From IMG/VR virus record IMGVR_UViG_3300046536_000804: 64,000 nt of DNA; one strand, 5' to 3'. Below are positions 42,461 to 62,690 of the stretch, in pieces (the stretch's first letter is position 1; every line of letters starts with the position of its first letter). The DNA is from an uncultured virus (IMG/VR IMGVR_UViG_3300046536_000804). Its lineage: Duplodnaviria; Heunggongvirae; Uroviricota; Caudoviricetes. The position numbers and the translations under genes were made by a program. The notes under the pieces were generated by a model. That model searched no databases. It worked only from the letters and a program-made list of their open reading frames with translations, and had not been told where the DNA came from.

Positions 42461-42518
42461 GAGGCTATTGTATCGTAACGCCGTGTCTCGTTTGCACTCA
42501 TTGACCCGAGGCAAAGGG

Positions 42519-45449: not shown

Positions 45450-45633
45450 AACATTCCTCCTCTGCTGCTTACGTTGCGGCAGTCTTCGTCAATGACCCGA
45501 CGAGAAGGGTTGTTCCGAATCGTCAGCACGCGGAACGCCCGATAGCTGTGATTCTCGCATAATGATGCGGCGTTTTTCGCGTTAATTTAGGGGTGAGAGC
45601 CAGTAGTCGCGATCATTGACCCGACCGGAAGGG

Positions 45634-45978
45634 TTATTGCTGCAACGTCGATGCCAATGAGGGGAAGCCGGATGCCTTAGAGAGGGTCTCCACGATAGGG
45701 GGAGCCTGGGGGCGGCGCCGTAACTTGACTGTGGGCAAGGCAGTACGTGGAATGTGAATTTTGAAGCCCGATCGATGACTTAATCCGACGATCCCTTTCT
45801 CCTCAGAATCGATCTCGAAGTTGTGCGGTTTGGCGACAATCATTCGGCGAAGGATTTCGTGCTTTGCCGGGTATCGGCGGCGGTCGCTTTCGCTCTTGGC
45901 CTTTAGCAACGACGCAACATCGGAGTCCTTGTGCGGCGCCGAGGCGATCTTCACAGCAAGTTCGTCGATAAAGCTCAT
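45634..45978 (-). CDS. Hypothetical protein
   Basis: 114 aa, coupled to the helicase gene; stop overlaps a pseudoknot element. Confidence 0.65.
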   Translation of the reverse strand: MSFIDELAVKIASAPHKDSDVASLLKAKSESDRRRYPAKHEILRRMIVAKPHNFEIDSEEKGIVGLSHRSGFKIHIPRTALPTVKLRRRPQAPPIVETLSKASGFPSLASTLQQ

Positions 45979-47444
45979 TGGTGATGCCCCTCGCTGCCGA
46001 TACTCTGCAGAATGTCAACGAACTTGTGGTTGAGATTCTCTTTCTTGTCCGAGATCGCACGCAGGTAATCGTCGGTAGCCAGGGTCTCCGGCGTTCGATC
46101 GAAGCCCACCCGGGACAGGAGACTGCCGGTCCAGCTCTTTGGCAACCGCGAGAAGAACCGCTGCACCTTCATGTTCTGCATATCTTCGGGCAGACCGATG
46201 TGGCTGTCAAACCGCAGCCCGCGGCCGATCGCCTGCCGTGACCGAACGTTCTGAAAGTGCTCGTCGAGTAACTGCGTCAGGCCGGTGCCTTTGAGCGACA
46301 ACCCTTGAGTACCGCTCGGGCCGAACAGGATGACCCGCGTGTTACCCGCGTTGTAGTCATTCACGATCTTTTTGCGTTCCTCGTCCGTGAGTCCGCCGTG
46401 GAACACGGCATGCGGGATGTTTTCTTTAGCTAACGCGGCAGCGTATGGTTCCAGCCCTGCCGACAGGAAGTTGGCGAAGGCGATCCCCTTGGCCCGCGGG
46501 TCCTTCAAGTGCTCCTTCATGTGCCCCATCGCCGCCTGCAGCTTGGTCGACTGCAAGAACGCCCGATACGGGTCGGGATCGCGATGGAACGGCAACGTTG
46601 AGAGACCGACCTGACGAGGACCGGTCAGAAAGGCCATCGTTCTACGCAGATCGTCCTCGCTCAGAGAGATCTCGTGACGCAGCTTGAATCGAATGGGCCA
46701 GGGCAACTTGCCCCAGATTCCGTTGTAAATCCGGGCCTGCTCTGGCGACATCTCGACATGGATGTCTTCGTACTTGGTCGGCACGACCGGCTTGCCTGGG
46801 TCGAAGTAGTCAACGTGACCTTTCAACTTGGTCTTGAGCTCGTCGGCGTGGTTGACGTCCAGCTCCTGCTTGCCGCCGCGACCGATGATGCGGTGGAAGA
46901 GACTGGGGTACTTCATCCTGCTGGTGACGTATCGCTTCTCGAAGTCCTCGGGCGTCATATGCTCGCCCGTCAGCATACGCAGCGGCACCGATAGTTCGCC
47001 CGGCCGGTTGACGATCGGCGTTGCGGAGAGCATCAAGACCTGGTCAGCACGGTCTGCAGCCGTCATCGCGGCCTGAGTTCTCGCAGATTCTGGATTACGA
47101 AGTTCTTGAGCCTCATCAAAGATCAAGTTCTTGCTGTTCCTGGGCAGCATCCCGGACCCTAACGCCGAATAGGACATGACATTGGGATCGGGATTGTCGG
47201 TGAACTTGTTGATCTCCTTGAGGTAGTTCTGTCGCAGCGAGGCTGGAGCTATAGCGGTGTAGGGCTCGCCACGAGCCTCGGCCGCCGCGATGGCGGACAG
47301 GCTCTTGCCGGAGCCCATCGCATGCAGGAGGAGCATCTTGAGCGGATGGTCGGCAGCTTGCTCGGCCAACGGCTTCTGATGCGGCTGGAGCTGGACCTCC
47401 GGCTTCAGAGCAGCGATCTTCTGAATTAGGAGGTGAGGAAGCAT
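45975..47444 (-). CDS. SNF2-like superfamily 2 helicase/ATPase
   Basis: MGSGKS (motif I), IFDEAQ (II), LSATP (III), QAIGRGLR (VI). Confidence 0.9.
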   Translation of the reverse strand: MLPHLLIQKIAALKPEVQLQPHQKPLAEQAADHPLKMLLLHAMGSGKSLSAIAAAEARGEPYTAIAPASLRQNYLKEINKFTDNPDPNVMSYSALGSGMLPRNSKNLIFDEAQELRNPESARTQAAMTAADRADQVLMLSATPIVNRPGELSVPLRMLTGEHMTPEDFEKRYVTSRMKYPSLFHRIIGRGGKQELDVNHADELKTKLKGHVDYFDPGKPVVPTKYEDIHVEMSPEQARIYNGIWGKLPWPIRFKLRHEISLSEDDLRRTMAFLTGPRQVGLSTLPFHRDPDPYRAFLQSTKLQAAMGHMKEHLKDPRAKGIAFANFLSAGLEPYAAALAKENIPHAVFHGGLTDEERKKIVNDYNAGNTRVILFGPSGTQGLSLKGTGLTQLLDEHFQNVRSRQAIGRGLRFDSHIGLPEDMQNMKVQRFFSRLPKSWTGSLLSRVGFDRTPETLATDDYLRAISDKKENLNHKFVDILQSIGSEGHHQ

Positions 47445-47446
47445 AT

Positions 47447-47564
47447 CGTCTTTCACCCGACGTTGAGGGTTAGCGCGAGCAAAGAGAGTCTCGATCTTTC
47501 ACCCGATCGGAAGGGCTACTGACGTGGCCTACCGCTCACTTCATTGACCCGAAGGAGAGGGTTG
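47447..47564 (-). repeat. Three tandem pseudoknot elements at 46-nt period
   Basis: Copies begin at 47447, 47493 and 47539, separated by unique linkers. Confidence 0.85.
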
Positions 47565-48665
47565 AGGATACAGCCGGCGGAACTCTTCACGAGCCTGCAC
47601 AGCAAACTCGGGGTGCTGCATTTTCAAAAGCAACTGCGGCTTCTTCGGCGGCATCTCCCAGGCCGGCGGTGGGTTCACGTCAGCCGTCGTCTGGAAGTAA
47701 CGCAGTCGCTCGGCCGGGTTGTACTGCCGAATACCCTGATATCGACCACGAGCATCGATCGCCGCGTGCAGCGGCTCCGGACCGGGCGACATCTGGAACA
47801 GCGCCCGCTGGGTCGGATCGGTTGGCGGCACACGCCACGGCAATCGAGTCGTCGAGGGGATCGGCTCGACCGGCTTGTTCAGATCGGCCTGGTTGCGTCG
47901 GTTGAGAAAATGCACACCGGCGCCGAGAGCAGCGGCACCAAGGCCGATACCGCCAAGACGTTTGACGATACGCGGGATGGCTGCCTTCTTGATGCGAACA
48001 ACGAGCGTTCCAGCATCTTTGACCCGATGAGGAGGGTTAGTTGCCGGATACTCGCGGCCGGCGTCAACCAACGAACGAATCCCCGACCCGACGTGCAGCA
48101 CTCGATTGGCTGCTTCGCTGGCCTCCAGGCCACCTCGGTGGCCGAGGAGGCCTTGCTGGTGCATCGTCTTGTAGACCTGGCCGACGTCGTGGGCCGACAT
48201 CCCGGAGTCGTTGGGCATCTGCCGGAAGACGGTCTGGGCCAGGGAGGAGTTCTCCAGAGGCGTTCGTTCTGGATGTGATTGAGAAATCGCGGCGGCCAGA
48301 GACGCTGCCGAGCCTCGATTGCCATGGACCTGGTCCCAGAGATTCGGTGCCATGGTCATCATGTACGGAGCCAGTTGCTTGATGTTCTGGCTGCCTGCTT
48401 CGATCGCCTGCTCGAACTGTGGACCGCGGGGCATCCCAGACGTCGAGACGAGCCCGCGGAGCAGTTGTTTGTAGGTTTCCCGATCGGCGTCAGCCGCATC
48501 GGCAATGGTGTCCCACTGGTTCTCGCGGCCGGCTTGCAGCTTGGCGGAGTCAAAGAGGTTCAGGCCAGGTGCGCGGACCAGACCTGAACCGCGGAGGAAG
48601 TTGCGGACCGGTGGAGCAGCGGCGAGCTGCTGCAGGGTCTCACGATCGTAGAAGGTGGCAGGCAT
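47541..48665 (-). CDS. Hypothetical protein with internal and terminal pseudoknot elements
   Basis: 374 aa; the element is translated as NPPHRVKDA internally and QPSPSGQ* at the end. Confidence 0.7.
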   Translation of the reverse strand: MPATFYDRETLQQLAAAPPVRNFLRGSGLVRAPGLNLFDSAKLQAGRENQWDTIADAADADRETYKQLLRGLVSTSGMPRGPQFEQAIEAGSQNIKQLAPYMMTMAPNLWDQVHGNRGSAASLAAAISQSHPERTPLENSSLAQTVFRQMPNDSGMSAHDVGQVYKTMHQQGLLGHRGGLEASEAANRVLHVGSGIRSLVDAGREYPATNPPHRVKDAGTLVVRIKKAAIPRIVKRLGGIGLGAAALGAGVHFLNRRNQADLNKPVEPIPSTTRLPWRVPPTDPTQRALFQMSPGPEPLHAAIDARGRYQGIRQYNPAERLRYFQTTADVNPPPAWEMPPKKPQLLLKMQHPEFAVQAREEFRRLYPQPSPSGQ

Positions 48666-49101
48666 AACGCTATTCTACCGCCAGGACGAGGTTTCTTCGT
48701 CTTTGACCCGACGAGAAGGGATTTTTTGGTCATCGATAAATTGTTGAATCAACCTGGTCATTATCTCCAGTGATTCAACCTTTAACAGACCGATGCGTCG
48801 GTAGTGCTCGAGCACGTACGGATCTACGAGAACTGACTCTGTCTTGCCCATGCTGCTACCGCCGCGAATGATGTGTGGACTTGTCATGTCTTCATCCTTT
48901 TACCCGATGAGAAGGGTTAACCTCCGCCGATAAACGGTCCCTGGCACTCACCGCCGCCGACGCGATATCGCCAGCACTCGGTGCAAGTTTGCACGTCGGA
49001 CGACGAGTCGCGTTCGTGCCCGCTCTCGAAGCACTGGTGCCAGGTGTCTTTTTTACAGTGCTGGCAATACCGCTCTTCGTTGAAGTATCGCGGTTCCTTA
49101 C

Positions 49102-49599
49102 TCATGATTCCACTCCTCGAGCAATCAAGCCGATCAGGAACAAAACCAGCAGGTGGAACGTGTTGTCCACCACGATGATCGACCATGGCGCCAAGGCGCC
49201 TGTCGCAAAAGCTTCCTGCCCGGAGACCTTCATCATCCACCACTTCGCAAGACCAAAACGGTCCACCGGCCAGTGCAGGACGAAGCACGCCACGACGCCC
49301 CACCACGGCATCCACCAAAATGCACACGCCCAGACGGCGGCTGTGTACAAGAGGCAGTGCACAGTGCAGGCCACATGACCGGTCTGACTAGCCATGATCT
49401 TCTCTCGCCATATCGACGATTCGGTTGTTTCTTTGCGGATGTTACCGCCACTGTCGCCGACAAATAGTTGGCTGTCGTCAAGATACGAAAGACCTGGCTT
49501 GTGCCAGGTCACAGGGTTCGTCTTGTTCTTTGCGAGCCAATCATTCTGAAAAATGTAGTCGCCGAGCAGGTGCCCGACGAGTAGTCCAAACGATTCCAT
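49102..49599 (-). CDS. DUF3307-like membrane protein
   Basis: HLLGDYIFQNDWLAxxK, HCLLY, HWxVD and DNTFH motifs. Confidence 0.75.
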   Translation of the reverse strand: MESFGLLVGHLLGDYIFQNDWLAKNKTNPVTWHKPGLSYLDDSQLFVGDSGGNIRKETTESSIWREKIMASQTGHVACTVHCLLYTAAVWACAFWWMPWWGVVACFVLHWPVDRFGLAKWWMMKVSGQEAFATGALAPWSIIVVDNTFHLLVLFLIGLIARGVES

Positions 49600-49643
49600 A
49601 TAGTCATTTCCCGGCGTTGACCTCTTTCACCCGAGGCAAAGGG

Positions 49644-50021
49644 TTAGATCGGCTTCTCGCCGACGCCGTCCCATGGTAACGCATACTTCTCCGCGATCAT
49701 CTCTGTGGCATAATCCTTACCGTCCGGAAGGACGATCGACGCCAACCACCGGCCGTACTTGTCGATGCCACGCGTCTTGGCAGGACTGACCGTAACCACG
49801 GTGCCGACCGGCACCATTTCAATGGCTCTGGCTTTCGATGCAAGACCACGCGTCTTCTCGTCAGGATTCAGGCTGTGGACCTCCGGAGCGTTCATGCCGA
49901 ACACACGGATGGTTCGGAAGAGCGTGATGTGGAAGCCGAGATCGATGAGATCAAGGTCCGCGGCGACGTGACACGTGTCACCGTCTAGCCAATCGATGAT
50001 CTTGCAAGCATAGGTAGCCAT
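49644..50021 (-). CDS. Thermonuclease (SNase) family nuclease
   Basis: DGDT, IRVFGMNAPE and DKYGRWLA motifs. Confidence 0.9.
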   Translation of the reverse strand: MATYACKIIDWLDGDTCHVAADLDLIDLGFHITLFRTIRVFGMNAPEVHSLNPDEKTRGLASKARAIEMVPVGTVVTVSPAKTRGIDKYGRWLASIVLPDGKDYATEMIAEKYALPWDGVGEKPI

Positions 50022-50064
50022 ATTTCACACCATTGCGCTGCCGTCTTTGACCCGACGTAGAGGG

Positions 50065-52656
50065 TTAAGCTCTGCCTGAGCACATGCCGCCGATCCGTTC
50101 TTCGTCACCACAGTAATGACACCGCGGATGGCCATTCTTGAAGGTCCAGATCGCCGCCTTGAACTTGTGCGGCTTCTGCCCTACCGTCTTGGCTCGTTCG
50201 CGGATCTCTGCGGACTCGTCCTCATAGGAGGGATCAGTAGCTTTGGCGTCTTTGACCCGACGAAAAGGGTTAAACCTGTCGAACAACGATGGCGTCTCGC
50301 GACGGGCCTCGTTGATCAGGCGTTGGCGCCAGGCAGTCACGTCCTGCTGATGCTGCTTACGCTGAGCATTGTGACCCAACCGACTCGCGACGATCCCACC
50401 TGCGGCACCGAGCGTACCGGCAAGGTAGCCGAACGGCGATGCTCGAACCACCCGTGGCAGTACCCGATTGGCTCGATTCAAACCGGACATGACCTTGGCG
50501 GCGGCATTTTCAGCACCACCAGCACCTGAAACGACCCTCTTCGGCAAGACCCAGCGGAACCGCTTGATCTTCTTCGCCAACGCGGCGATCGAGTCGGCCT
50601 GCGACTGCAGCGGCGGCATCGCCCGGTTCAGCGATGTATGTAACCGATCTGCTGCTGCGCCGCTCGCCAGGCTGCCAGCACTCAGGCCCAGGCCGCCGAC
50701 CGTGGCGATGTCGCCAGCGGTGCCGAGAGCCGTACTGGGCTTCTCGGGATAGAAATCTGGAGCGGTGGCTGCGATGCTTGCGTCTTTGACCCGACGAAGA
50801 GGGTCGGCACCGACAATCGACACGGTCTTCTCGGTAACTGGCTTCGAGGTGTCACCGTCCTTGAGCCATTGCTTGAACTGATCGACCGTCATCGACTCCA
50901 TTGAACCTAAACCCTTCCAGCCGGAAGGGTAATGGCTCAAGTACAGCTTCTTGGCGTCTTCAGCAGAGACGGTGCCGAGGACGCCCTTGTGTTCGTCCGG
51001 TTTTCCCGAAGATGGGTCGATCTGATTGATGATAAAGACGACCTCGCTGTCCAGATTGTCACCGACGAACACGTCCACCGCGTCGCCGTCCATTAAGGAC
51101 TTCGTGCGTTTGACATAGCCGTAGTTGGCCGTCATCAGGTTCTTCCAGGGCTTGCCATCCTTGCCCACCCCTCGGCGATACTGGCCCTTGGCTGTCTCGA
51201 TCGAAATCGGGATGCCTTTGTAGTAGATGTGGCCCTTTTTGTAGTTCCCGGCCTGCTGTTGCGGCACCGTCGGCTTCGGGTGCACCCGATTCATCGCCAG
51301 GCGCAGCAACGACGGTGTGACGTGCTGGGCGGTCTTTGCGACCGAGATCGCGCTGTCGTCATTGACCCGACGAAGAGGGTTGATGCTTTTGAGCCAGTCC
51401 AGAGGTTGTTGATACCACGGGACGCCTAGCGGCTGCTGCGGTCTTTCACCCGACGCAGAGGGTTCAGATACCGGGATATCCGCTGATGCCTGTACAGGCG
51501 TAGACACAGGTGGTGCTGGTGGGCGAGGAGCCTGCTGGTGCTTCCTGGCATTGGCGGCCCTTCTCGCTGCGATTAGGCCCACCAGGTCGTCCGCCATGCC
51601 GGCAATCATCAAATTCGGTCCGGCGGCCGCCTTGAACGACTGGGGCATGTCTTTCTTGGTGCGGGAGATCTTCTTCCACTTGCCTGAGCGGTTGGTCGTC
51701 GGAGTGGCCGACTCGTTGTGGTAGATGACATGCTCTTCGCCGACCCGTTTCTGTGCGTAGAGGCCAATCCGCTTGCCGACCGCCTCTTCGCCCCAGTCCA
51801 TGATGTCGATGATGACGATCTTCGGCAAGCCGTCGTGGACATAGACCTCAATCCCGGCCATGTCGCCCGCTGGGAGCTTATCGACGAAGGCTTGCAGATA
51901 GTCCTCCAGTGACGGCCGTCCGCCTAAGGCTGCCTCTTTAACCCGAGGAGCAGGGTTAGCGCGTTCGTCGATGTTGCGGGCGACCGGCCGATTGGACTGA
52001 CTACAATCGGCGCCGCACTCCGGGCAGTTGTAACAATCCGCGGTATCGAAGCCGCTATTGCAGGCGTGGCATGACCAGAGGTGATCGCCGTTGGCGTAGT
52101 AGTTGTCCATCGACGTCTTGGTCGTATCGTTGTCGTGCAGGACGCCCGCCTTACGCAGGGCGACCGTGATGTGATGGTCGTAACCGTTGCGGAGCGGCTC
52201 AAGACCGTACGACTTCCGCAACTGACGCAGGGCGGGCGAATCGACGGTGACGTAGTGGATCATGGAGACGTCCGGCCATCCGTTCGGCTTGACCGTCTTC
52301 ATGTCGCCCAGGGAATAGGTGAAGTGGTGACCACGCTCACTGATGGCGTCCGGCCCGCCGACTTCTTTGACCTCTTCGGGCGACATCACGGTGATATGCG
52401 AATTGAGCCGGCCGTTATGCAGTGGAAGCTCAAGCCCTGGTTCCGACAGGGCGTCGAACATCCCGCGGACCATACTGTTCGGCACCTTCAGGAGCAGCCA
52501 GCCTGAGTCGGACAACTGGAGCTCGCCCGATAGGGAATAGGCCTTGGTCGGCGGGTTGGCGTCGGCCTCCTTGCAGAAGAGGCCGTGGGCTCGGCCGAGA
52601 TGATAGTCGGTGCGGCATTGCTCAACGAAGAAGGACGGCTGCAGAAGGATCGTCAT
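50065..52656 (-). CDS. Polyvalent protein: 2H phosphoesterase + Zn finger + InPase-like domain + hydrophobic segment + Zn finger
   Basis: Two HxT motifs (SHITV, HHITV); CHAC..CPEC; GNYKKGH..ISIE..GKPW..YGY..DGDAVDVF inorganic-pyrophosphatase-like domain; C-terminal CHYC. Confidence 0.75.
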   Translation of the reverse strand: MTILLQPSFFVEQCRTDYHLGRAHGLFCKEADANPPTKAYSLSGELQLSDSGWLLLKVPNSMVRGMFDALSEPGLELPLHNGRLNSHITVMSPEEVKEVGGPDAISERGHHFTYSLGDMKTVKPNGWPDVSMIHYVTVDSPALRQLRKSYGLEPLRNGYDHHITVALRKAGVLHDNDTTKTSMDNYYANGDHLWSCHACNSGFDTADCYNCPECGADCSQSNRPVARNIDERANPAPRVKEAALGGRPSLEDYLQAFVDKLPAGDMAGIEVYVHDGLPKIVIIDIMDWGEEAVGKRIGLYAQKRVGEEHVIYHNESATPTTNRSGKWKKISRTKKDMPQSFKAAAGPNLMIAGMADDLVGLIAARRAANARKHQQAPRPPAPPVSTPVQASADIPVSEPSASGERPQQPLGVPWYQQPLDWLKSINPLRRVNDDSAISVAKTAQHVTPSLLRLAMNRVHPKPTVPQQQAGNYKKGHIYYKGIPISIETAKGQYRRGVGKDGKPWKNLMTANYGYVKRTKSLMDGDAVDVFVGDNLDSEVVFIINQIDPSSGKPDEHKGVLGTVSAEDAKKLYLSHYPSGWKGLGSMESMTVDQFKQWLKDGDTSKPVTEKTVSIVGADPLRRVKDASIAATAPDFYPEKPSTALGTAGDIATVGGLGLSAGSLASGAAADRLHTSLNRAMPPLQSQADSIAALAKKIKRFRWVLPKRVVSGAGGAENAAAKVMSGLNRANRVLPRVVRASPFGYLAGTLGAAGGIVASRLGHNAQRKQHQQDVTAWRQRLINEARRETPSLFDRFNPFRRVKDAKATDPSYEDESAEIRERAKTVGQKPHKFKAAIWTFKNGHPRCHYCGDEERIGGMCSGRA

Positions 52657-52736
52657 GGTGGACCTCAAGTTGTGACAATCCTTATTTTACAGATCCTGCA
52701 CAGCACTGGACGGCATCTTTCACCCGATGCGTAGGG

Positions 52737-54336
52737 TTAAGGCTGCTGACGGACGAAGAAGGCAACGATCTCAGTGACAGTCAGCAGAATAGCCAGACCC
52801 CACCGGCCCGCTACCGTTAGCTTAATCATCGCTTCGTCTACCGCCTCCTTCATTGCATCCGTCTTCATCACTACATGTTGTTCCTCGTCTTCAACCTTTG
52901 GCGGCAATCTTCCCCAGGTGCTGCAAATCGCTACACCAAACAGGATGCCGACAAAAATGTGGGCCAGATCTTTGAAGATATCTTCGTGTGAGATCTTGCC
53001 CTCAACAGGGACTATAAACCGAGCAATACCGAAGCCAACGGCACCGGTGAAGAGAATGAAGTTGAGCATGATGATCTCCACGGATTACTTGACTCACTAA
53101 CCCGAGCCAGGTGGTTAAACCGCACGCCCAGCTCGACGTCGTCGGCATTTGGCCAAACATCGGTTTTCTCGGTCGCGGGTCAAATGGCTGCGGCACGAGG
53201 CTGGGCCGTGCGGGATTGGAAGGTGGGCGGCGTGCGACCTCTATACACCAAAGGTATGACCATTCCCGGGACTCGAACCCAGTTTCCTCCGCCCATAATT
53301 ACGCATGAGGCATGTGTGTTCGACGAATCTCGGCTATCTCCCGCTGAACGCTGTCGTAGAGAAGCGGGTCAGAATCTTTGATCCTGGCCAACTCCGCCGG
53401 CCGTTGCTCGGGAGGCATCTTGAAAATCTTGTTGACGAGGTTCTGGGCAACCGCCACTCGGCTCTTGAGCATGCTGTAGGCGGTGTTCAAAACGAACAAG
53501 CTGATGAGGATGACCCACAACTGCCATATCTGTGTTTCGGTAATACCGAGAAGACTGTACTCGGTTGATACGAGAGCGGCGCCGAAGAGGAAGCCACCCC
53601 ACATGCTGGAAAGATCTCGACAGACGGCCTTATAACTCGGCCAGGCGTCGACCTCGACAACGGACCGCACGACGAAGATGATGAGCGTGATCGTGACAAG
53701 AGTGAGGATTAACATGAGTTGGTCCAACTATTCGTTCCTGCACAGGGGCGATACAAAACATCCGATCGCCCACCGATTTCTCGGTGGGCGATCGGCATCC
53801 TTCAAATCAGAAAACAGCTAATCAGGCGGCTTTTAATGCCGAATCCTGAGCACTGTACGACCACCGAACAAACCCGCACGACCTGTGGAGCAAGAACCGG
53901 CATTCGCCGATGCTCCTCCATGCGACGATCGAAGTCGACTGAACAGGCCTGCCTTGCCACAGCCGCCCGCGGCGCTGGATTGGGTTGTAATGTTTACCGA
54001 GGTGCTTCGCGTCATCGTCCTACCGACCCCGCACGCGCCGTTGGCACAACCTCCGGCTGCTTGCAGCAATGTCGGGCTGGTATCGGCCCAGGTCGGATTG
54101 ATGATGTTCGAATTCGCGGATTCACGGACCTTCTGCGGCGCCGAAGAGAGAGAGCTTTCCCGGAACTGACTGAGATCCGCCATTGCGATAAAGGTATCGT
54201 TGCTGTTCAGGACGAGCTGAGGCTCGTCCATCGGCGGCGGGAGAAGCTTGTCGAGCGGTTGTGCATGCAAGTTTGTCGCGAATACCAGGCTGAGCACCAG
54301 GCCCAGCAAGAGACCAGAGAAAGGGGGACGAATCAT
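52737..54336 (-). other. Membrane/secreted hypothetical genes (52737-53081, 53299-53727, 53833-54336)
   Basis: Hydrophobic helices or signal-peptide-like N termini. Confidence 0.6.
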
Positions 54337-54385
54337 CAGACTACTCCTTTGTGAAGGACAAAACAGAAACCAGACACACTACGGC

Positions 54386-55519
54386 TTAACGCCGCACAAG
54401 GGACCAACGATGATCGATACTACCATCTGCGGCGAACGGATGCCACGAAAACCTGCCGTCATCGCCGCGGCGAGCCTCGCGATAGATCCGACCGGGTACG
54501 TCGTAAAGCTGTCCCACCTGGGCATGGCAGGAGTTGCAAGACATCCCGGCGCCGAGATAACCAGGCGGCGTAAAGTCGCCGCCATCTGAGACAACCGCCC
54601 TTGTCGGCACGAACTGGGCTCGTGGATCGATCTTGGCGGTATACACCGTGCTCGACGCATCCAGACCTTCAGACGCGAAAGTCCATGTCCAGGCTTGACG
54701 CGAGGCGTCGGCGAGTGAGACGGACGGTCGGTAGGTGGTGCCAGTGTCCCACCCATCGGCATTCTTCTCTTGTACTCGAACCTCAAAGACATGTTCCTTC
54801 CCATTCTTGATTCTGAACAAAACGTCATACGCCAGAGTTCCCGTGGGGAACTCCCAACGCCACTTCGGTACGAGCGAGAACGCCCGTACGTCTGTGTCTT
54901 CTTGCCAGTAAGCAATCGGCCCGGAAAGATCCAGGCCGGTCACGTTACGCCACTCTTTGCTGCTGATATGATGCATCCCGCCGCTGGTTCGCCACGGGTC
55001 CACATCGGCAACAGGTGTGATGTCGTTGAACTTCGATCTACCGTTGTTCATGGTGTACATTTTCTGGTAGACCGGGTTCAACGAGTAGAACTTGAGGTTC
55101 TTGCCAACCGGAACGCCACGATCCTTCAGCAGAGCCAATATCCGGGTATTCTCCGGCTTGGGCAGCCACGGATTGTCGCTCTCCTTTGGCGCTTTCCAGT
55201 CCTTCACGTAGACCAGCCAGTTGCCGTCGGTTGACGGCTTCGTGACATAGGCGCCGACGCCCCACGAATGCGTATCGTCTCGAACGATCAAGGCATCGTC
55301 GATTTGGTAGTCAACGCCAACGAGAAGAACCACCGGTAGTCCGGTATCACGGGCTTTCTTGGCAACGACCGCGTGTCGCTCCCGCCGGCGCGTCTCTTGC
55401 GTATCTTCCAGTGGCGGCAGTGCATCAATGATGGGGCCAGGCGGTGGTTGTAGTTGGGCGAGCGGTTGAGCACTTGTCACCGAGGCAAGTAGGAGAAGGG
55501 TAATTGCTGCGTACCTCAT
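54386..55519 (-). CDS. Secreted protein with CxxCH motif
   Basis: Signal-peptide-like MRYAAITLLLLASVTSA; CNSCH near the C terminus. Confidence 0.65.
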   Translation of the reverse strand: MRYAAITLLLLASVTSAQPLAQLQPPPGPIIDALPPLEDTQETRRRERHAVVAKKARDTGLPVVLLVGVDYQIDDALIVRDDTHSWGVGAYVTKPSTDGNWLVYVKDWKAPKESDNPWLPKPENTRILALLKDRGVPVGKNLKFYSLNPVYQKMYTMNNGRSKFNDITPVADVDPWRTSGGMHHISSKEWRNVTGLDLSGPIAYWQEDTDVRAFSLVPKWRWEFPTGTLAYDVLFRIKNGKEHVFEVRVQEKNADGWDTGTTYRPSVSLADASRQAWTWTFASEGLDASSTVYTAKIDPRAQFVPTRAVVSDGGDFTPPGYLGAGMSCNSCHAQVGQLYDVPGRIYREARRGDDGRFSWHPFAADGSIDHRWSLVRR

Positions 55520-55533
55520 GTTCGCATCCTTTC

Positions 55534-55585
55534 AAAAAACGACGCTGCCGGATGTGTACGACAAGTACACCCACGGCAGCGTTTT
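55534..55585. terminator. Putative terminator hairpin
   Basis: AAAAAACGACGCTGCCG...CGGCAGCGTTTT inverted repeat. Confidence 0.55.
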
Positions 55586-56351
55586 CACAGGTTACTTTTC
55601 GACAACTTCTCTCGCCGCTCTCAAAGCGGTGAAGGCTTGCCGAATTGTCTCAGCCCTGGCGTTCCAGGTCTGCAGGATCGCCCGATAGTTGTCGGCAGCG
55701 ACCCGATTTGCTTCATCGCCGGACTGGTCATACGTGTAGCCGTTGACATAGCCCTTTTCATCGGTGATGGGGGTCAGATGACCCCCAAGACCGGCAGCAG
55801 GCGGCATTGGCACATCGCCGATGCACTGCAGCAACGCATCCAACCAGGCAGCGGGCGAATCGTCATACAACGGCACCAGTGTCTTGTCTGGTCCTGGTAA
55901 GTAAGCGATCGCCTCGCTTCGGTGGATTCCGTTGATGATTTCGATTGGCATGAGACTACCACCCTCACCACGTTGTCGTCTTTTACCCGACGCAAAGGGT
56001 TCGCCTGCTTAGACCGGCGAGGTCATCATGACATCCAGGTTAGCATCGGAGACGCCGATGAGCGTGTCGTAGGCCGCACTGACGACCAGGTCACGGTCCT
56101 TGTTCGCCGGGACCAGGCCAGCTTCCTTGAGACGAACGGTAAGAGCGAACTTGGCAGCCTCCGGGTGCCTGCGGGCGAAGCGTTTCGCCGCATTGCCCGA
56201 TGTGCAACCACCTTGAAGCATCTTGAGGATAAAGGCGACGATGTCGGCCCACGGCAAGGAGCCAGCGTTGCTGCCGCCAGCAGCGGTGTACTTTTGCGCC
56301 ATCTTTGCCGCAGCATCGTTACTGTTCATGACTGGCATAGGACGGTCCCTT

Positions 56352-56564
56352 TCAGAAAGAGTCACTGTTCTTCTGGTCGATCAAAGCCGCGGCGTCCAAA
56401 CGAAGGATAGCCGCGATACGCTTGCATTCTCGGTTCGAGATAACGATTCGTCCGCGTTCCATATCGCGGATGTGTTGCCGGGTACAGTCGAGACGCTCGG
56501 CAAGATCAGCTTGCGTCAGGCTGAGCTTCAGACGCTGGTCGCGGATGAGATCGTGATAGGTCAT
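56352..56564 (-). CDS. XRE/Cro-family HTH regulator
   Basis: IRDQRLKLSLTQADLAERLDCTRQHIRDMERG pattern. Confidence 0.85.
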   Translation of the reverse strand: MTYHDLIRDQRLKLSLTQADLAERLDCTRQHIRDMERGRIVISNRECKRIAAILRLDAAALIDQKNSDSF

Positions 56565-56764
56565 CGATCACCGCCCTGTTGTACTCACGCAGTTTGATTT
56601 CGTCGTCGGTCGCTGGTGCCACCGAGACGAATCGCTGCCCTTTACACATCCAACATTTCGTTGCGGGATGGATCTCGACACCCTCTCTTGAAAAGACTGC
56701 CCAGCCATCACTGTTGTTTCCAGATCCGTAACAGTGAGGGCAGTTTATCACCATTCTTCACTCC

Positions 56765-57757
56765 TTATGGCGGAGGTAACGGGTCAACGTGGGTCACCAT
56801 ATACTCACCCTTGGTGAAGGGCGACGAGGATGCAGCTTGAATCACGAGCCCGCCAGTTGTGATCGAGAGCTGTCCGCCTGGAAGATCGGTTCCAAATACA
56901 ATGCGGTACGGATCCTTCGGGATTGGTAATGGCACCACAGGTGGTGCAAACGGAGACGGCCCGACATCCTTGCCACCCAACGACAGCCAGAGAGCTCTGG
57001 CTTCATCCCAGGTCTGCTTGGCCGGCGACAGACCGGTAATGGGATCGAACATATCCGCGGAGAAGCAGATGATGACTTCGGGGCTCACCGACAGCATGCC
57101 GGCCGGGGTCATCTGGATGCCAGGGTCGATACCCCACGTCTCCACGATGTAATTCCCCGCAGCGTTCTTGCCGCTGAGCATGACCGCATGACCGCCGACC
57201 GAACGGCCGCCACCGGTGCCCCAGATCGCATTCGGACCGGCGTTGTTGGCCCAGCCGCTCGGCAGAGAGCAAGTGAACCCGCCACCGCAAAAGTAGTAGA
57301 GACCGATCGCGATGGCTGCGGAGTCTGACGGCTTGACCGTCATCACGTCGAGGATCTTGCGTGGCCCGTTCGGACCGACCACGCCGGTCGTGAACTCAGG
57401 GAAGATGTCCTGATCACCAAGACCGTTGTCACCACCGGCGATCTTGAGATAGCGAGCGATCACGGCGCTGGCATCGAACGCGCACTCGATCCCAGAATTG
57501 CCGGTGTATAGCTGCGCCTGGTGAGCCGCCCAGCAATAGAAACAATCACCATAGTGGTCGTTTCCCAGGATCGGGAACTTAAGAGATCGGCTTTTTGTCC
57601 AGTCAAAACTGGTTGGCGGTGCCGGTACGGCTTTGATTGCCGGTAGATGGTCCGGCACCGCCATCATGCGGCCGTGCAGCTTGAAGCGAAGCTGATCACG
57701 GTCAACGAGCCGTATAGGGTGACCAAGATAGGGAATGACGATATCGGTGAAGCCCAT
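56765..57757 (-). CDS. Papain-like cysteine peptidase
   Basis: LGNDHYGDC (Cys), GGHAV (His) and ETWG motifs; FDW propeptide-boundary-like motif. Confidence 0.7.
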   Translation of the reverse strand: MGFTDIVIPYLGHPIRLVDRDQLRFKLHGRMMAVPDHLPAIKAVPAPPTSFDWTKSRSLKFPILGNDHYGDCFYCWAAHQAQLYTGNSGIECAFDASAVIARYLKIAGGDNGLGDQDIFPEFTTGVVGPNGPRKILDVMTVKPSDSAAIAIGLYYFCGGGFTCSLPSGWANNAGPNAIWGTGGGRSVGGHAVMLSGKNAAGNYIVETWGIDPGIQMTPAGMLSVSPEVIICFSADMFDPITGLSPAKQTWDEARALWLSLGGKDVGPSPFAPPVVPLPIPKDPYRIVFGTDLPGGQLSITTGGLVIQAASSSPFTKGEYMVTHVDPLPPP

Positions 57758-57817
57758 GGAACAATCTCCTCAACAGGATAGGTCTGATCGGTTCGATCAT
57801 TAACCGGATCGACACGG

Positions 57818-60800
57818 TTATTTTGCTGGAAGGAACTTCGACACGTAAGTCTTCACCGAGTTGAGATCAGTGATAGCCACGGCGCCGATCAAGTTGTTCG
57901 ATGCATCGGTCAAGATAACTGCTGGTGAGGTAATCCCAGCAAACTTCGGCCTGGCATCCAACGCAGCCTGCGTGGTGATTCCATAGACGTTGACTCCGTT
58001 CGCCTTGAGCCAGTCTCGGAAACCCTGGTCTTCGGTGACCAGTACCGTCTTCGGTGTTGGCCACAACACTAAAAAGGTCAGCGAGGCTGCTTTGGCATTA
58101 GGAACCGGAGGATTCGGTGGCGGATTTGGCGGATTTGGCAAATTCTCCAACGCTGTCAGCCGCTTGTCGGTCTCGACGCGAAATGCATCCAGCGTGGTCT
58201 TGATCGCCGCCACCGATTTCCGCAGGCTCGCCAGTTGCGTCGCAATATCGTCATCCGGTGTAGGCGATATAGGTGATTTGCTCAGCACCGCGGTAACAGT
58301 ATCCAGAGCAGCAACAAGACTCAGAATCGACTTACCGGTTAACGGCGAATTGGCTTGCTTCTTGGCCTCCGCTACGGAGGCCGTTAAAGATTCAAGCTGA
58401 TCACTGGTAATGCCGCCAGCCTTCACGGTCTCCGTGAGGGCATTCAGCTTTGCTTGAATGCTGGCGACGTCGGTTTTCAGCTTCTCAATGTCAGAAGAAG
58501 GTCCCGGTGGAGGAGGTTGCGGCTGCGGATCTGGAACCACCGGAGGAGCTGGTTTCGGCTGATCGCCGACAAGGACAACGCAGATCTTGTTGGCCGCTGG
58601 GAAGAAAATACCATATTCCGTCCGCTTGGCTTTCCCGTCGGCACCGGGCTGGATCTCGATCAGTAGATTGAAGTGCTTCGGATCTTCAGAATGCTCGCGA
58701 CGGATGATGATCCCGTCAGCCGGATAAGCAAGCCAGTTGAACTGGGCAGGCGAGTTTTCCACAGTGAGCGATGTGATACGCCCGACGGACGCTTTGACAG
58801 ATTCGGGGATCTTGACGGGCATGGTCGGCGTCACTGGCTGGGCGCCCAGTGAGGTGACGACGCTAAACAGTACGAAGGTAAACAGGTGTTTCATGGGTAG
58901 CTTTCATTGTTTGATTTGCCGGCGAGATTGCGCTAAAAGCCTTTGACGGCGTTCGATGCCGTTGAGAATCTCGCCTGCGATTGCCTCATCCTCGGTCCAC
59001 TTGCCGGCTGCATCAGGAGCCGCTTTGACTGCGGCAATTGCTTCTTCCACCCATTGAGTGGCTTCCTTCGCGATCTTGGACAACTTACCGGGCGTGACGA
59101 TAGAGTCTATCGCGGCGGCCAGACCGCCGCCAGGGGGAACTGCGAGTTGTGCCATCTTGGTGGCGATGAGACGCTTGACGTTTGGACCCATAAAAGCCAC
59201 GGAATCCGGCTGACTCTTTCACCCGAGCCGCAGGGTTAGATGTTGCGTCACCTGCACGGGTAGTGTTGCTGCGATGCAGCCAAGGCGCCACACCGTTTGC
59301 AGACGCCACCTTCCTCCTGCGGGCCGTCCGGCGGGACGGCAACCCACTGATGTTTCCTGGTCAGGTCTCGGAACACGCCGAAGACAGTCTCCAGGACAAC
59401 CATGCCGATGATGACGAGGGCCGCGAACACAAACGCGACGAAGATGCCGATCATACCGACAGTAATCTCGAACACGTTAAATCTCCTACCGGATGGCGGA
59501 CTCTTTCACCCGAGCCGCAGGGTCTGTTGATATCCGGATATTGAACTTATTTGGCGTACTTCTGAGCCAGCACAGCAAGTTCTGGCGCCGAGGCGAACGC
59601 GATGACCTCCAGCACCTTGCCGGTGTTATCGAGGACAGCCGCGCACGGCAGCGGGATGTTCTTGCCGCCGAACGGATAGACATCTCCGGCCTGATAGGTT
59701 TTCGCGTCCACGGTGACCACAAACCTGACCAGCATCGGGTCGGCGGCGACCTTCTTGGCATCCAGGGCGGCTGTCGTGTAGAGGATCAGCTTGGTCGTGG
59801 CGAGCGACGGCGGTGTCACGACCGGCGAGGGGCTGACGGGGCCAGGCCCGACGACAGGCGACTTGTCGGCCGGCACCACGATCGGGATCGGCGGCGGAGG
59901 AGGTGGCGGCGGCTTCATGAAGTACGTGCCGACGCCGCCTAGCAGCATCCCGACGAGGATCGAGACCAGCGGCTGGTACTTCTCGGGAATGTACGGCTTG
60001 GCCATGTTGGCAAGCGCGAGGATCGCAGACGTGATCTCCGCCTGCTTGAGGGGGGCGTCTGGCGAATCGGGCGGGATGTTCCGCAGATCTGTGGTCGCTG
60101 CGTGAGCTCGATTGACAATGGATTGGAGGTTGTCAGCCATCGTTCAAATCTCCTAGTTGACACCTTTGACCCGGTGCAAGGGGTTGGTAGAGCCGGCCAT
60201 CCCAACCCAGCGGAACGACCGCGGGAGGCAATGAAGAACGACTTCCTCAGGAGGTTTGGCCGGCTCGGTCTACCAACGTGTCGTTGGACACGAGATAAAT
60301 GGATCACCGTCCTTTCCTGGTTGATGTGACTGAACATCTTACCAATTCATTTTACCCGGCTACGTCCCCAGTGGGGGAGGTAGGCCTGGCGGCATTCCGT
60401 TATTGCCGCGATGAGCTTCTTCGTACTGACGGGCAAAGAGAACTACATCAGCCATCGTCGCTGTAATACCAGCCTGACGACGTGTTGTCATCGTACGGAT
60501 GAGAAGATCAGGATCGCTCGGCCACTCGACCGCAAAGAATTGCCGCAGCTCGGCTCGTTCTTGCTCGCAGTTTTCGTGGCTTTCTGTCAGACCTTTGATA
60601 TGTAGCTCGAGTTGCTCGACACGAAGCATCAACTCCCCCTGACGTCGTTTGACGATCAGGAGGTTGTTGAGGTAAGTGGATATTGCGGTAACGATGGCAG
60701 TCAGAAAGGCAAAGAGGGCGACCCAGAATCCGCTGCCCAAACTCGTCAAAATCTCCTGCATCTCGCAGCCTCCGATGCATAACTGAGTGGCGACAACAGA

Positions 60801-61510
60801 GACCGCGGCTGGGCCAACCGCGGTTCTTGGGATCTCAGATGACAGTCGGATTACGGGGCGGGCGGAGCCGGAGGGGCGGGCGGCGTCGGCGTGTTGGCCG
60901 CAACGGCTGCAGCCAGGGCGGCGTCGGACGCCTTCAGCGAGTCGACTTCGGCTTGCACCGGGGCGAGCTCTGCGGCGGTGGCGCCGTTGAGCAGCGCGGC
61001 ATCGACGGCGGCTTGCATACGCGCCGCGAAACCGTTGATCAGGGCGATGGCGGAATCGACCACACCGGTGATCGAGGTGACCTCGTTGGCGAGGTCGGTA
61101 AGGATGGGACTGGACATGACACATCTCCTTGGGTAAGTGGACATTACAGACACACGGGTTGACCCCGTGCATCTGTAAACTTTACCAAAAAGGTGTCACA
61201 GTTACACGGGTTGATCCCGCAATTCTCAGGACTTATCACTTGCGATCGCTTGCTCCAACTGAACTCGGTGATCGTGCAAAGCGTCGCGCAGTTTCAACAG
61301 CAAGGTATCGTCTTTTCTGCCCTTGATTAGCTCGTCGACCTCCTGCTTGGTAAGACCATCCAGCTTGACGTCAAGCCGAATCAGCTCGTCAAGACCGTCA
61401 AGTTTCTTCTCGATCCGATCAAGTCTTGCGACGATCTCGTTAAGTTTGAGAAGAAGTTTCACGATATCCTCCACGGAGTATTGGGGATGGGCGTCCCCAA
61501 ATAATACCAT
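57818..61510 (-). other. Secreted/membrane/coiled-coil hypothetical genes (57818-58894, 58904-59200, 59248-59475, 59547-60140, 60360-60761, 60851-61117, 61226-61510)
   Basis: Signal peptides, Pro-rich linkers and transmembrane-plus-coiled-coil composition; possibly a lysis/envelope module. Confidence 0.6.
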
Positions 61511-62240
61511 ACCTCACCCGGTGGCGATAGACGGCAATCGTAGTTGGCATCATTTACCCGATGCAAAGGGGTCGTCGGTCGGCGACGGTCCGAGGTTACT
61601 CGGACCGTCCGGCCCGTAAAGCTCGTCATGATACTCGTCGCACCGCCGCTTGAACTCGGGCGACGGGGGTAAACACGGCCAGGCTTCAATGCTTGGAAGT
61701 TCGATGCCGAATGCCTCGGCAAGTTCCTTGCGGTTCTCGTGGCACAGACCATGACCTGCTTCACGAAGGAACCTATCCACTGCAGCTTGAAGTGGATCTG
61801 GCCTAGCCATGGCCTCCTGGATCACAACCACCGCAAATCGATAGGCGGTTGCCATGCCGTCGTGATGAAGGCTGTGAAACGTGTCATCATTCTTCGCCAG
61901 CGACTGAAAACGTACGGCCCTCGCCGAAAGTTCGGCGAGGGCTCCTGAAAGACGCGGGTCGATAATCGGCATAAATATTCCTTGCTTGCGTCTTTGACCC
62001 GACGAAGAGGGTCGTTGGTTAATGATCTCGTCCGTTCGGATAGTGGGGCTTCTCCTTGAACTTTGCAGTGCTATCCGACGGGACGACACGGTAGGAAGTG
62101 CGAGACCCGCGAACGCCTTTGCGTTGCGAGTCTCGCAGCCGTTTTGCATAGCCGAGAGCTTTCGCTCGTTCACCAGTAAAGGCGACGTGCTCTTTCCCTC
62201 GGCTGGTTTTGATGACATCGTAGAGCACGAGTCTCCTCAG

Positions 62241-62690
62241 TTACGCAGCCTTGGTCGTGGCGGCCGTGGCCTCGATCTCCATTTCCACCAGATCCAGGTA
62301 TTGTTTCATGTTCTCGAGGCCACCCACGCGGGTGACCATATCGCGGACCTCGAAGAACGTTACCACCTCGTGGAGCCGTAGCGGGGCTATCTTCTTGTCC
62401 TGAGGGGCGGGGTCGGCCTGAATGGCTGCAGGCATGTGCTTGCCATTGCTGGCGGCGCCGTTGGCTGGCGTGGTCGCTGCGGTCTTCTTCGAAGTCGCCT
62501 TCTTCTTGGCTCTGACCGCCCTGGTATTGTAGACCAGGCCGGCGCTGGTCTCCAGGCCGGTCAAGCGTTCTGTTTCGTCGGCAACGGCCTTCGCCGCTGC
62601 GTCATTAACGCGATCGAGGACCTCGTTAATTACGGCCGTACGGGACAGGCCGATAACGTCTTTGCTGGTCAAGTTCGTCAGGTGTGCCAT
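62241..62690 (-). CDS. Hypothetical protein with basic linker
   Basis: Start MAHLT at 62690 with AAGGAG RBS. Confidence 0.65.
   Translation of the reverse strand: MAHLTNLTSKDVIGLSRTAVINEVLDRVNDAAAKAVADETERLTGLETSAGLVYNTRAVRAKKKATSKKTAATTPANGAASNGKHMPAAIQADPAPQDKKIAPLRLHEVVTFFEVRDMVTRVGGLENMKQYLDLVEMEIEATAATTKAA

Follow-up and report, generated by a model that had tools for sequence, protein, structure and literature searches.

A strand-specific RNA hairpin element at gene boundaries and between the modules of a phage polyvalent protein

The window analysed in this work is a stretch of 64,000 nt from a 159,470-bp contig of an uncultured virus. Its minus strand carries a long ORF that runs in one continuous frame, with a GC3 of 0.74-0.80, through all of its modules. 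They are arranged in the order leader, 2H phosphoesterase, Zn ribbon, unknown module, linker module, InPase, hydrophobic module and Zn finger. The likely start of the ORF is ATG 52656, which gives the 863-aa protein P0001; a database protein identical to this product is encoded on the 159,470-bp contig. The ORF and its modules are located as follows:

50065..52668, minus strand: polyvalent ORF, 867 aa from TTG 52668 (ORF list and translation)
52147..52452, minus strand: 2H-SAK phosphoesterase domain, aa 73-174 in the 867-aa numbering (Pfam PF22547, E 2.3e-11, 44.5 bits, cut-off 27)
50860..51261, minus strand: InPase (type I pyrophosphatase-like) domain, aa 470-603 (Pfam PF18823, E 2.5e-46, 157.3 bits, cut-off 26.8)
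50074..50256, minus strand: C-terminal Zn-finger module (BLAST matches from query 801-811)

The domains named in an earlier reading made from the sequence only were recovered. Pfam identified 2H-SAK and InPase, and the translation shows CxxC clusters at the C-terminus and after the 2H domain, as well as a Gly/Ala-rich hydrophobic stretch. In the AF2 model, the 2H-SAK region has a pLDDT of 96-98 over about aa 41-170, and InPase of about 89-98 over roughly aa 451-610, with 77-78 at 511-530 (863-aa numbering). BLAST analysis revealed that the Zn-finger module recurs within P0005, P0090, P0129, P0111, P0123, P0105, P0055 and P0128. Further modules of the ORF are common to other polyvalent proteins, and homologues were found on IMG/VR viral contigs. 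The window encodes, on one strand, multisubunit RNAP-like proteins, ThyX and an HNH endonuclease, and yields PHROG matches, as expected of a phage.

Phage polyvalent proteins are described by Iyer et al. 2017 (PMC5512222) as phage polypeptides with many unrelated effector domains each. These authors propose that the proteins are packaged into the virion and then processed into units, and ascribe this step to an MPTase peptidase domain. More generally, proteins of this kind are viewed as multi-module counter-defence toolkits of phages. The present ORF combines two unrelated effector domains, 2H-SAK and InPase; an MPTase peptidase domain was not detected in it by Pfam. Its sequence features indicate that the ORF is a single genuine gene encoding a phage polyvalent protein.

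An element of about 30 nt is repeated in and around this gene. It consists of TAACCCT, 6-7 variable bases, TCGGGTNAAAGA and a 3′ arm complementary to the variable bases; the bases preceding the TAA vary between copies. A covariance-model search revealed 33 copies and 3 weak ones in the window, all 36 on the minus strand (0 on the plus strand) and all co-directional with the genes. The pattern search allowing up to 2 mismatches gave 32 matches in the window, all minus, against 0.05 expected (100 shuffles, largest 1), and a regex search gave 33 minus-strand matches and none on the plus strand. Frame a of the element opens with the TAA stop, frame c meets a stop in the loop in about half of the copies, and frame b is open in every copy. 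Tandem arrays with a spacing of 45-46 nt occur, as do subfamilies with identical stems; the variable stretch TCTTCGT is common to five copies. The locus of the polyvalent modules (45.5-52.8 kb) contains 16 of the 36 copies.

At the gathering threshold, Rfam matched only two tRNAs in the window and none of the elements, and an E-value scan of 47300-52900 gave no match at elements. The viral contigs searched for the element yielded 0 matches, and elsewhere only single matches, mostly due to chance, were obtained. The covariance model found no element in related viral DNA (80 loci, 905,916 bases). The element is an abundant, strand-specific and undescribed RNA structure, and the phage in which it occurs encodes a multisubunit RNA polymerase of its own.

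The element had been called a pseudoknot, and this holds for one of its two stems. In stem 2, the hairpin, both sides changed in 6 of 7 pairs, and 89.6% of the cells are paired; the covariation score was 0.396 vs 0.119 for shuffles (0/500 reached 0.396), and slid controls did not exceed 0.084. Stem 1 (ACCC/GGGT) is nearly invariant, with changes on both sides in 0/4 pairs across the 33 strong copies; one weak copy at 57783-57821 (18.9 bits) shows a compensatory change from C-G to G-C. We regard the element as an RNA hairpin, with the H-type pseudoknot as a possible, candidate topology. Copies inside the polyvalent ORF and non-coding copies were predicted to be equally stable (-7.3 vs -7.5 kcal/mol), which is compatible with either recent arrival or continued selection at the RNA level.

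The H-type pseudoknots that take part in recoding adjoin stop codons or slippery sites. The candidate topology resembles them in its short G-C stem 1, 1-nt loop 1, 7-8-bp stem 2 and A-rich 4-nt loop 3, and in the structure beginning right at the stop codon. It differs from them in having no conserved slippery site, tens of copies and a stem 1 without covariation support. The search for a programmed readthrough or frameshift signal found no conserved slippery site. The other frames after gene-end copies mostly close within 14-167 nt (generally about 12-25 codons), and at the copy that ends the polyvalent ORF they close without joining the next gene. Relative to the element, the downstream genes lie in frames a, b and c in 7, 8 and 7 cases.

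Seven copies had been placed at the polyvalent ORF. All of them are present there on the minus strand; the earlier positions mark the 3′ ends and so lie about 2 nt beyond the matches:

52709..52739 (match 52716-52737), minus strand: E0; TAA 52737-52739 terminates the upstream 114-aa ORF 52737..53081; 45.2 bits
51928..51958 (match 51935-51956), minus strand: E1; frame b, NPAPRVKEA; separates the Zn ribbon from the unknown module; pLDDT<50 segment 214-248
51435..51465 (match 51442-51463), minus strand: E2; frame a, GAA for TAA, EPSASGER; pLDDT<50 segment 365-418
51352..51382 (match 51359-51380), minus strand: E3; frame b, NPLRRVNDD; pLDDT<50 segment 420-442
50776..50806 (match 50783-50804), minus strand: E4; frame b, DPLRRVKDA; immediately past the InPase module, pLDDT<50 segment 616-630
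50242..50272 (match 50249-50270), minus strand: E5; frame b, NPFRRVKDA; between the hydrophobic and Zn-finger modules, low-confidence helix
50037..50067 (match 50044-50065), minus strand: E6; TAA 50065-50067 is the stop of the polyvalent ORF; 44.7 bits

The five peptides that had been read from the internal copies are present in the ORF translation, and the copy in the TAA frame, E2, does carry GAA in place of TAA. Although the ORF makes up 5% of the called coding sequence, it holds 5 of the 8 in-ORF copies (p=1.8e-5). The proposal that the copies fall between domains was borne out, since the AF2 boundaries and the edges of homologue matches agree. Segments with pLDDT<50 contain four of the five internal copies, the fifth (E5) lies in a low-confidence helical stretch (means of 48-52 for 10-residue blocks), and none lies within the two confident AF2 domains. 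The C-termini of eleven homologues map to query 608-640, where E4 occupies 617-626, and the N-termini of three map to 434-459, just past E3. The matches of the Zn-finger module begin at 801-811, and E5 occupies 795-804. Two homologues, P0058 and P0077, end about at E5 when their unaligned C-terminal tails (18-19 residues) are extrapolated. Neither a nucleic-acid repeat at junctions nor a K-x-A edge motif is known to feature in the account of Iyer et al. 2017 (PMC5512222), whose main text lacks the word 'linker'. Here, one nucleic-acid repeat marks the seams of modules both between genes and within a gene.

Across the window, gene boundaries are the usual site of the element. By position, 12 of the 36 copies overlap an ORF end, 16 are otherwise intergenic and 8 lie within ORFs. 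The stop of the upstream ORF is the TAA or TGA of the element in 10/36 copies, and at 2 further copies the ORF ends at the loop TGA. A gene starts within about 200 nt downstream in 22 of the 34 copies examined, 20 of these starts being 13-110 nt past the CCC (outliers, -20 and 184). The tRNA cluster is also flanked by copies. This distribution suggests that the element would act as an RNA signal marking gene boundaries, presumably at the RNA level and perhaps contributing to the processing or stability of mRNA. Such a signal between cistrons could be of a new kind.

The element as an intrinsic terminator was rejected: its hairpin has no T-run, and none of the strong copies in 45000-63000 coincides with one of the 24 terminator-like sites. 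The window has strong terminator-like hairpins elsewhere, e.g., at 53762-53795. The scan for promoter-like sites, which misses promoters of the phage's own RNAP, gave 4 sites vs 6.0 expected, none of them at an element.

Several of the genes downstream of the polyvalent ORF correspond to modules of polyvalent proteins in relatives:

45634..50021, minus strand: downstream genes
49644-50021, minus strand: SNase-like ORF, matching the internal parts of no homologue
47541-48665, minus strand: 374-aa ORF, matching internal parts of 3 homologues
45975-47456, minus strand: SNF2 helicase (Pfam), matching internal parts of 10 homologues
45634-45978, minus strand: downstream 114-aa ORF, matching internal parts of 19 homologues

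Copies of the element in this region are found at 49643, 48916, 48720, 48036, 47561, 47515 and 47469, with 45633 just below it; the junction between the helicase and the downstream 114-aa ORF has none. The SNF2 helicase, 374-aa and 114-aa proteins are thus fused modules in relatives and separate, mostly element-bounded genes here.

The peptide encoded in frame b contains a K-x-A motif that recurs at module edges in homologues. At the N-edge of the InPase module, K is present in 60 and A in 53 of 65 aligned homologues, and K-x-A precedes the Zn-finger module by no more than 13 residues, or spans its edge, in 8/8 homologues; this conservation partly reflects shared ancestry of the modules. Homologues of the 374-aa ORF have PK[SA]AS at the position of the element here, and E3 ends 6 residues ahead of the native K-T-A that opens the InPase module. 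K-x-A is encoded by 4 of 6 coding copies in frame b vs 1 of 25 non-coding copies (Fisher p=0.0022), the counts being small and partly non-independent; E4, E5 and e62011 have a common stem variant. The suggestion of the sequence-only reading that K-x-A motifs may be maturation-protease sites is thereby supported indirectly; K-x-A at module edges is probably a processing site, at which the polyprotein would be cleaved. Among the 63 window ORFs scanned (64,000 nt of the 159,470-bp contig), no protease, recombinase or Y1 transposase was found. The motif is a candidate processing site for polyvalent proteins, and the element a candidate sequence substrate for domain shuffling.

The sequence-only reading left two origins for the internal copies, fusion of former gene-element units or insertion into linkers. 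Both 2H and InPase are present in 78 of the 150 best homologues, a score-ranked list that favours two-domain proteins, and their order is as here in 72. An element-like peptide was found in only one of the 150, P0009, which has HPLRPVNEDA at a junction; the element or the peptide may thus be older than assumed. With 78/150 homologues fused and only one having such a peptide, it is more probable that most internal copies arrived later, in linkers that already existed, than that they are left over from the founding fusion. For the 2H-InPase core, homologues thus show the same fusion without elements, the observation that had been named beforehand as refuting fusion, and insertion into, or retention in, existing linkers is favoured. 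Some junctions may nevertheless have arisen by fusion or fission, because P0058 and P0077 appear to end near E5, E2 lies in the stop frame and several modules are separate genes.

Our preferred reading, to which we give about an even chance, is that of one real polyvalent gene, with a hairpin placed at cistron boundaries and internal copies that entered pre-existing linkers, where frame b gives K-x-A. Insertion would then be the origin of the internal copies, which would have entered, or recombined into, inter-module linkers already present. They would be retained only at sites that leave the frame open and every folded domain intact. Those in frame b, encoding R-V-K-(D/E)-A, would supply or preserve the K-x-A that the family has at module edges. 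The same cassette would mark module boundaries either as gene boundaries, through the frame a stop, or as in-frame linkers, through frame b.

Alternatively, the internal copies could be fusion relics. The ORF would have been assembled in this lineage from neighbouring genes ending in TAA plus element, and stop loss or a frameshift would have left the element as a linker. E2, with its TAA to GAA change, fits such a history, as does a second read-through ORF at 61550-62218, in which CGA replaces the TAA of the element and is followed by an SD-like sequence and an ATG in the same frame. The homologue termini near E3, E4 and E5 and the modules that are separate genes here point in the same direction. 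However, 2H precedes InPase in 72/150 homologues with one element-like peptide among them all, and 4 of the 5 internal copies are in frame b, each of which needs an extra frameshift and an open in-frame spacer. Moreover, E1, E3, E4 and E5 are not followed by any remnant of a start codon, SD or leader, and a word-limited search found no free-standing short homologue of the Zn-finger module. We consider this explanation fairly unlikely.

A further step would be to regard the element as dual-use punctuation, which we hold to be quite unlikely. Frame a would provide a stop and a structured spacer, including in two or more copies an SD-like loop used by the next gene, and frame b a 10-residue K-x-A linker cleaved after packaging. 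One frame change, or recombination between copies, would switch a boundary between 'separate genes' and 'cleavable polyprotein', with the same mature modules resulting in both states. The repeats would also cause the anti-defence modules of this phage lineage to be shuffled rapidly.

The elements might instead be recombination cassettes, i.e., short homologous or enzyme-recognised exchange sites, so that the junction copies would be scars or substrates of module shuffling. Direct copies flank most modules, the polyvalent-module locus is rich in copies (16/36), and P0005, the nearest homologue, shares these modules but orders them differently; the identical-stem subfamilies, with five copies of TCTTCGT, also agree with exchange. 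A precedent is provided by the PeSL cassettes of T4-type phages (PMC2839356), described as small repeated stem-loops that flank variable genes and mediate modular shuffling; here the shuffling would be at the level of protein domains. However, module shuffling is general in the polyvalent family, element-less relatives included, about 30 nt of imperfect homology is short, and no recombinase was found among the 63 window ORFs. The covariation points to a structural role over homology alone, and we find this explanation decidedly unlikely. According to the same source, PeSL consists of a sigma-70-like promoter and a terminator, whereas the present element has no promoter-like site or T-run, and the units that it flanks include protein domains. 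A PeSL-type cassette of promoter and stem-loop was rejected, as no promoter-like site of the kind scanned for lies at any element (4 vs 6.0 expected).

A neutral selfish repeat of the REP or MITE type would make the internal copies tolerated passengers and K-x-A incidental. Enterobacterial REP/BIME are extragenic palindromes associated with RAYT transposases; they form short imperfect hairpins in many copies, have a bulge and a conserved motif alongside, are located just past stop codons in operons and are transcribed. The present element is likewise a short many-copy hairpin after stop codons (12/36 overlapping an ORF end, 16/36 otherwise intergenic), and its copy number, subfamilies, tandem arrays (45-46-nt spacing) and restriction to one lineage, with 0 matches in viral contigs and single, mostly chance ones elsewhere, would suit a selfish repeat. 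Unlike REP/BIME, it occurs in a phage, on one strand (36/36), with a conserved 8-nt loop and some copies read in frame within genes. Its orientation always follows that of the genes, it provides the gene stop in 10/36 copies, its coding copies are enriched in K-x-A, and Pfam matched no Y1 (RAYT) transposase among the 63 ORFs scanned, which makes a selfish origin very unlikely. The idea that in-ORF hairpins are translational pause sites, slowing ribosomes at domain borders to aid co-translational folding, accords with the position of the copies and with a structure kept as well as in non-coding ones, but is hardly plausible, since the hairpins are weak (about -7 kcal/mol), E4 starts about 5 residues past the end of InPase, which would still be in the ribosome tunnel, and most copies are non-coding, so pausing cannot be the main role of the element.

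The mycobacteriophage stoperators and SAS/ESAS (PMC3203893) are described as short asymmetric repeats present in dozens of copies at gene boundaries, all oriented alike, with an additional inverted repeat in ESAS. Stoperators are described there as acting in transcription regulation, the function of the SAS/ESAS/stoperator group being given as still unsettled. Unlike these repeats as that source presents them, the element of this phage is located at stop codons, one of its stems covaries, and it is also read in frame within ORFs.

The element proved to be a repeated minus-strand hairpin of about 30 nt. Alignment of its copies shows TAACCCT and 6-7 variable bases, then TCGGGTNAAAGA, and last a 3′ arm whose sequence complements the variable stretch. 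Across the whole window, a degenerate pattern matched 32 times, on the minus strand only, against 0.05 matches expected, and a regular expression found 33 copies there and none on the plus strand. A covariance model built from the element copies recovered the same 33 and three weak ones, again on the minus strand only. These counts cover the window, which is 64 kb of a 159-kb contig. The seven copies that the sequence-only reading had placed in and around the polyvalent ORF (50065-52668, minus strand) were all found in their positions by pattern search. The peptides it had derived from the five internal copies were present in the translation of that ORF, and the internal copy translated in the frame of the TAA does have GAA in its place. 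Two tandem arrays with near-constant spacing were also seen:
47435-47565, minus strand, three element copies with 46-nt spacing, between a 374-aa ORF and the helicase gene
20874-20957, minus strand, two element copies with 45-nt spacing, 5′ of the 787-aa RNA polymerase gene

The long ORFs of the window, in which genes were called by greedy ORF choice with no gene finder, are nearly all on the minus strand. At 10 of the 36 copies, an upstream ORF stops at the element's own TAA (once TGA), and at two copies the upstream ORF enters the element and ends at a TGA in the loop. Eight copies are within ORFs. The other 16 are otherwise intergenic, among them tandem arrays with a 45-46-nt spacing and copies flanking the tRNA cluster. 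By position, 16 of the 36 copies are concentrated at 45.5-52.8 kb. A gene start was found within about 200 nt downstream for 22 of 34 copies examined; 20 of these starts are 13-110 nt past CCC, with outliers at -20 and 184. A preferred frame of the downstream gene was considered and dropped, as the starts split 7/8/7. At two copies, 48916 and 47469, the following gene starts so soon downstream that the A/G-rich loop would act as its ribosome-binding site. The TAA of copy 48916 closes an ORF (48917-49105, minus strand) that overlaps, in a different frame, the DUF3307 gene. From an internal ATG, the 3′ portion of this ORF would encode a small CxxC...CxxC protein, and it may be a short Zn-ribbon gene. 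The tRNA cluster (477-1619, minus strand) has element copies on both sides (1615 and 467) and contains the following:
477-549, minus strand, tRNA with anticodon CTA (amber-suppressor type)
505-1176, minus strand, HNH endonuclease gene amid the cluster
1214-1287, minus strand, tRNA with an 8-nt anticodon loop, read as 'ttaa' by ARAGORN
about 1295-1463, minus strand, tRNA-like gene with an insertion of ~100 nt
1469-1587, minus strand, tRNA-like gene whose D-loop region holds a 54-nt insertion and whose anticodon loop is replaced by one of 4 nt

The element had been described as a pseudoknot. Its hairpin (stem 2) is borne out by covariation: in a fixed register, 6 of 7 pairs show changes on both sides, and the covariation score of 0.396 compares with 0.119 for shuffles (0 of 500 reached 0.396) and no more than 0.084 with slid partner columns. 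In most copies the 3′ arm has a one-base bulge. Stem 1 (ACCC with GGGT) is invariant in the 33 strong copies, so covariation is silent on it either way. In one weak copy (57783-57821), which supplies the stop TAA of ORF 57818..58894, a C-G pair of stem 1 is replaced by G-C, a compensatory change. If stem 1 pairs, the fold would be an H-type pseudoknot, its loop 1 a single nucleotide and its loop 3 four nucleotides and A-rich; this is reasonable but, given the lack of variation in the strong copies, unproven.

The role that fits best is a putative cis-acting RNA signal marking cistron boundaries, which would serve in processing, 3′-end protection or translational coupling. This reading is based on the co-orientation of the element with the genes, the placement at stop codons and around tRNAs, the covarying stem, the conserved loop and 5′ flank, and the lack of terminator or promoter features. 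The element lacks a T-run and is absent from the terminator-like sites of the window, and promoter-like sites show no enrichment. Scans with Rfam, both at the gathering threshold and by E-value, gave no family at the elements. The phage genome encodes its own multisubunit RNA polymerase, so a role of the element in transcription by this enzyme is conceivable. Two RNA-polymerase-like ORFs were observed on the minus strand: one of 1480 aa at 32154-36596 with Rpb2-type and N-terminal Rpb1-type domains, and one of 787 aa at 18508-20871 with Rpb1 domains 4 and 5. PHROG and Pfam gave no match for the majority of the remaining ORFs, and we therefore regard the virus as a large, very divergent phage. 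Canonical terminator-like hairpins that are strong, carry T-runs and are distinct from the element are present on the coding strand at 53762-53795 and 45172-45197 (minus). Decoding of the element's TAA by a quadruplet or suppressor tRNA (1214-1287) was rejected, because the loop of this tRNA is better read as a UAA anticodon and no logic of frames fits. Stop-codon recoding was rejected as well: although a CTA tRNA is present, the ORF pattern is that expected under the standard code, reading stops as sense gives no more coherent ORF set, and the 62 minus-strand ORFs of at least 60 aa end in TAA (32), TGA (22) or TAG (7), with one running off the window end.

Outside the window, searches for the element gave nothing informative. 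Four single matches were obtained in genome contigs, with no multi-copy contig, and 16 metagenome loci had one match each, with no multi-copy locus. There were no matches in the viral contigs searched, none by blastn against INPHARED, and none with the covariance model in 80 related viral loci, in which a search for analogous repeats gave coding tandem repeats only. Four metagenome contigs (L005, L008, L010 and L011) share one element-like sequence (~401-423) with stem-2 pairing and the one-base bulge, in a single copy per locus and without the TAA; in L010 it is on the strand opposite to the flanking ORFs.

The polyvalent ORF encodes protein P0001. GC3 is 0.74-0.80 throughout all its modules in a single frame, which shows that it is one gene. 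Five of the eight in-ORF copies fall in this ORF, whose share of the called coding sequence is 5% (p = 1.8e-5, from small counts). Domains (867-aa numbering) and in-frame copies (E1-E5, 863-aa numbering), all on the minus strand, are as follows:
aa 73-174, 2H-SAK domain (Pfam)
aa 233-242, E1, in a segment of pLDDT <50
aa 398-406, E2, in a segment of pLDDT <50
aa 425-434, E3, in a segment of pLDDT <50
aa 470-603, InPase domain (Pfam)
aa 617-626, E4, in a segment of pLDDT <50
aa 795-804, E5, in a low-confidence helical stretch
Both Pfam domains are listed as phage-type polyvalent-protein domains by Iyer et al. (PMC5512222). An AlphaFold2 model built with 83 sequences placed two confident domains at aa ~10-175 and ~443-612 (863-aa numbering), and E1-E5 are outside both; pLDDT is below 50 for 401 of 863 residues, so this placement alone is weak evidence. 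Homology supports the claim that the elements separate domains, as E1-E5 occupy the gaps between homology-defined modules. The C-termini of 11 homologues map to query 608-640 and the N-termini of three to 434-459. Homologue matches cover about 252-331 in the unknown module and begin at 801-811 in the Zn-finger module. By extrapolation of unaligned tails, P0058 and P0077 end at about E5. An excess of frame b (always open) over frame c among in-ORF copies (6 vs 0) was not significant (p estimated at ~0.09), because about half of the copies close frame c by a loop stop.

Two origins had been proposed for this arrangement, namely fusion of separate genes with their elements, or insertion of elements into linkers. 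A full-library search gave 11,762 homologues, of which the best 150 were examined by a score ranking that favours two-domain proteins. Both 2H and InPase were present in 78 of these 150, in the same order in 72 of the 78 and with a spacing of 6 to 1280 residues; only P0009 among the 150 had an element-like peptide. Such widespread fusion without the element favours insertion, by which the elements would have reached already existing linkers later. The nearest homologue, P0005, contains these same modules arranged differently, the shared ones being ~55-62% identical. Fusion or fission may nevertheless account for single junctions. E2 is in the stop frame. In ORF 61550-62218 (minus strand, 222 aa), CGA replaces TAA in a copy (62011) that is read through in the stop frame, followed by an in-frame SD-like AAGGAA and ATG, which makes this ORF a candidate second fusion; a strong terminator-like hairpin was also seen inside it (61917-61942). 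Ten homologues contain internal stretches that match the SNF2 helicase (45975-47456), and matches were found for the 114-aa ORF (45634-45978) in 19 homologues, for the 374-aa ORF in three and for ORF 41375-42538 in two. Judged by these matches, several neighbouring genes correspond to fused modules of relatives, and most such genes have an element at their boundaries. A word-limited, and thus weak, search found no free-standing Zn-finger module.

Translated in frame b, the element gives V-K-(D/E)-x. Ala follows (D/E) in 4 of 6 frame-b coding copies, compared with 1 of 25 non-coding copies when hypothetically translated (Fisher p = 0.0022, from small counts). The Ala-bearing coding copies comprise three different stem variants, E4 and E5 being near-identical. 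This enrichment points to a protein-level motif that shaped the coding copies or at which they arose. K-x-A also occurs at module edges in relatives without any sign of the element, a conservation that in part reflects common ancestry of the modules. Of 65 sequences aligned at the InPase N-edge, 60 have K and 53 have A, and alignment occupancy falls just upstream. The 2H consensus has K-x-A a little upstream of the first conserved block, and in 8 of 8 homologues K-x-A is at most 13 residues upstream of the Zn-finger module or straddles the edge of this module. Homologues of the 374-aa ORF have PK[SA]AS at the site of our element. Enrichment of KEAA in homologues (22 vs 4.2 in shuffles) was discarded as independent evidence, since many cases are homologous positions. 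Prohead proteases of other phages cleave leaders and internal proteins, and by this analogy we infer that K-x-A is a putative processing site; a scan of 63 window ORFs found no protease. Compared by eye, the first ~12 residues of P0001 and its homologues P0005, P0058 and P0078 are alike (M-S/T-I-F/L..P..L), and K-x-A follows within ~22-30 residues, both where 2H comes first and where InPase does. This may be a shared leader.
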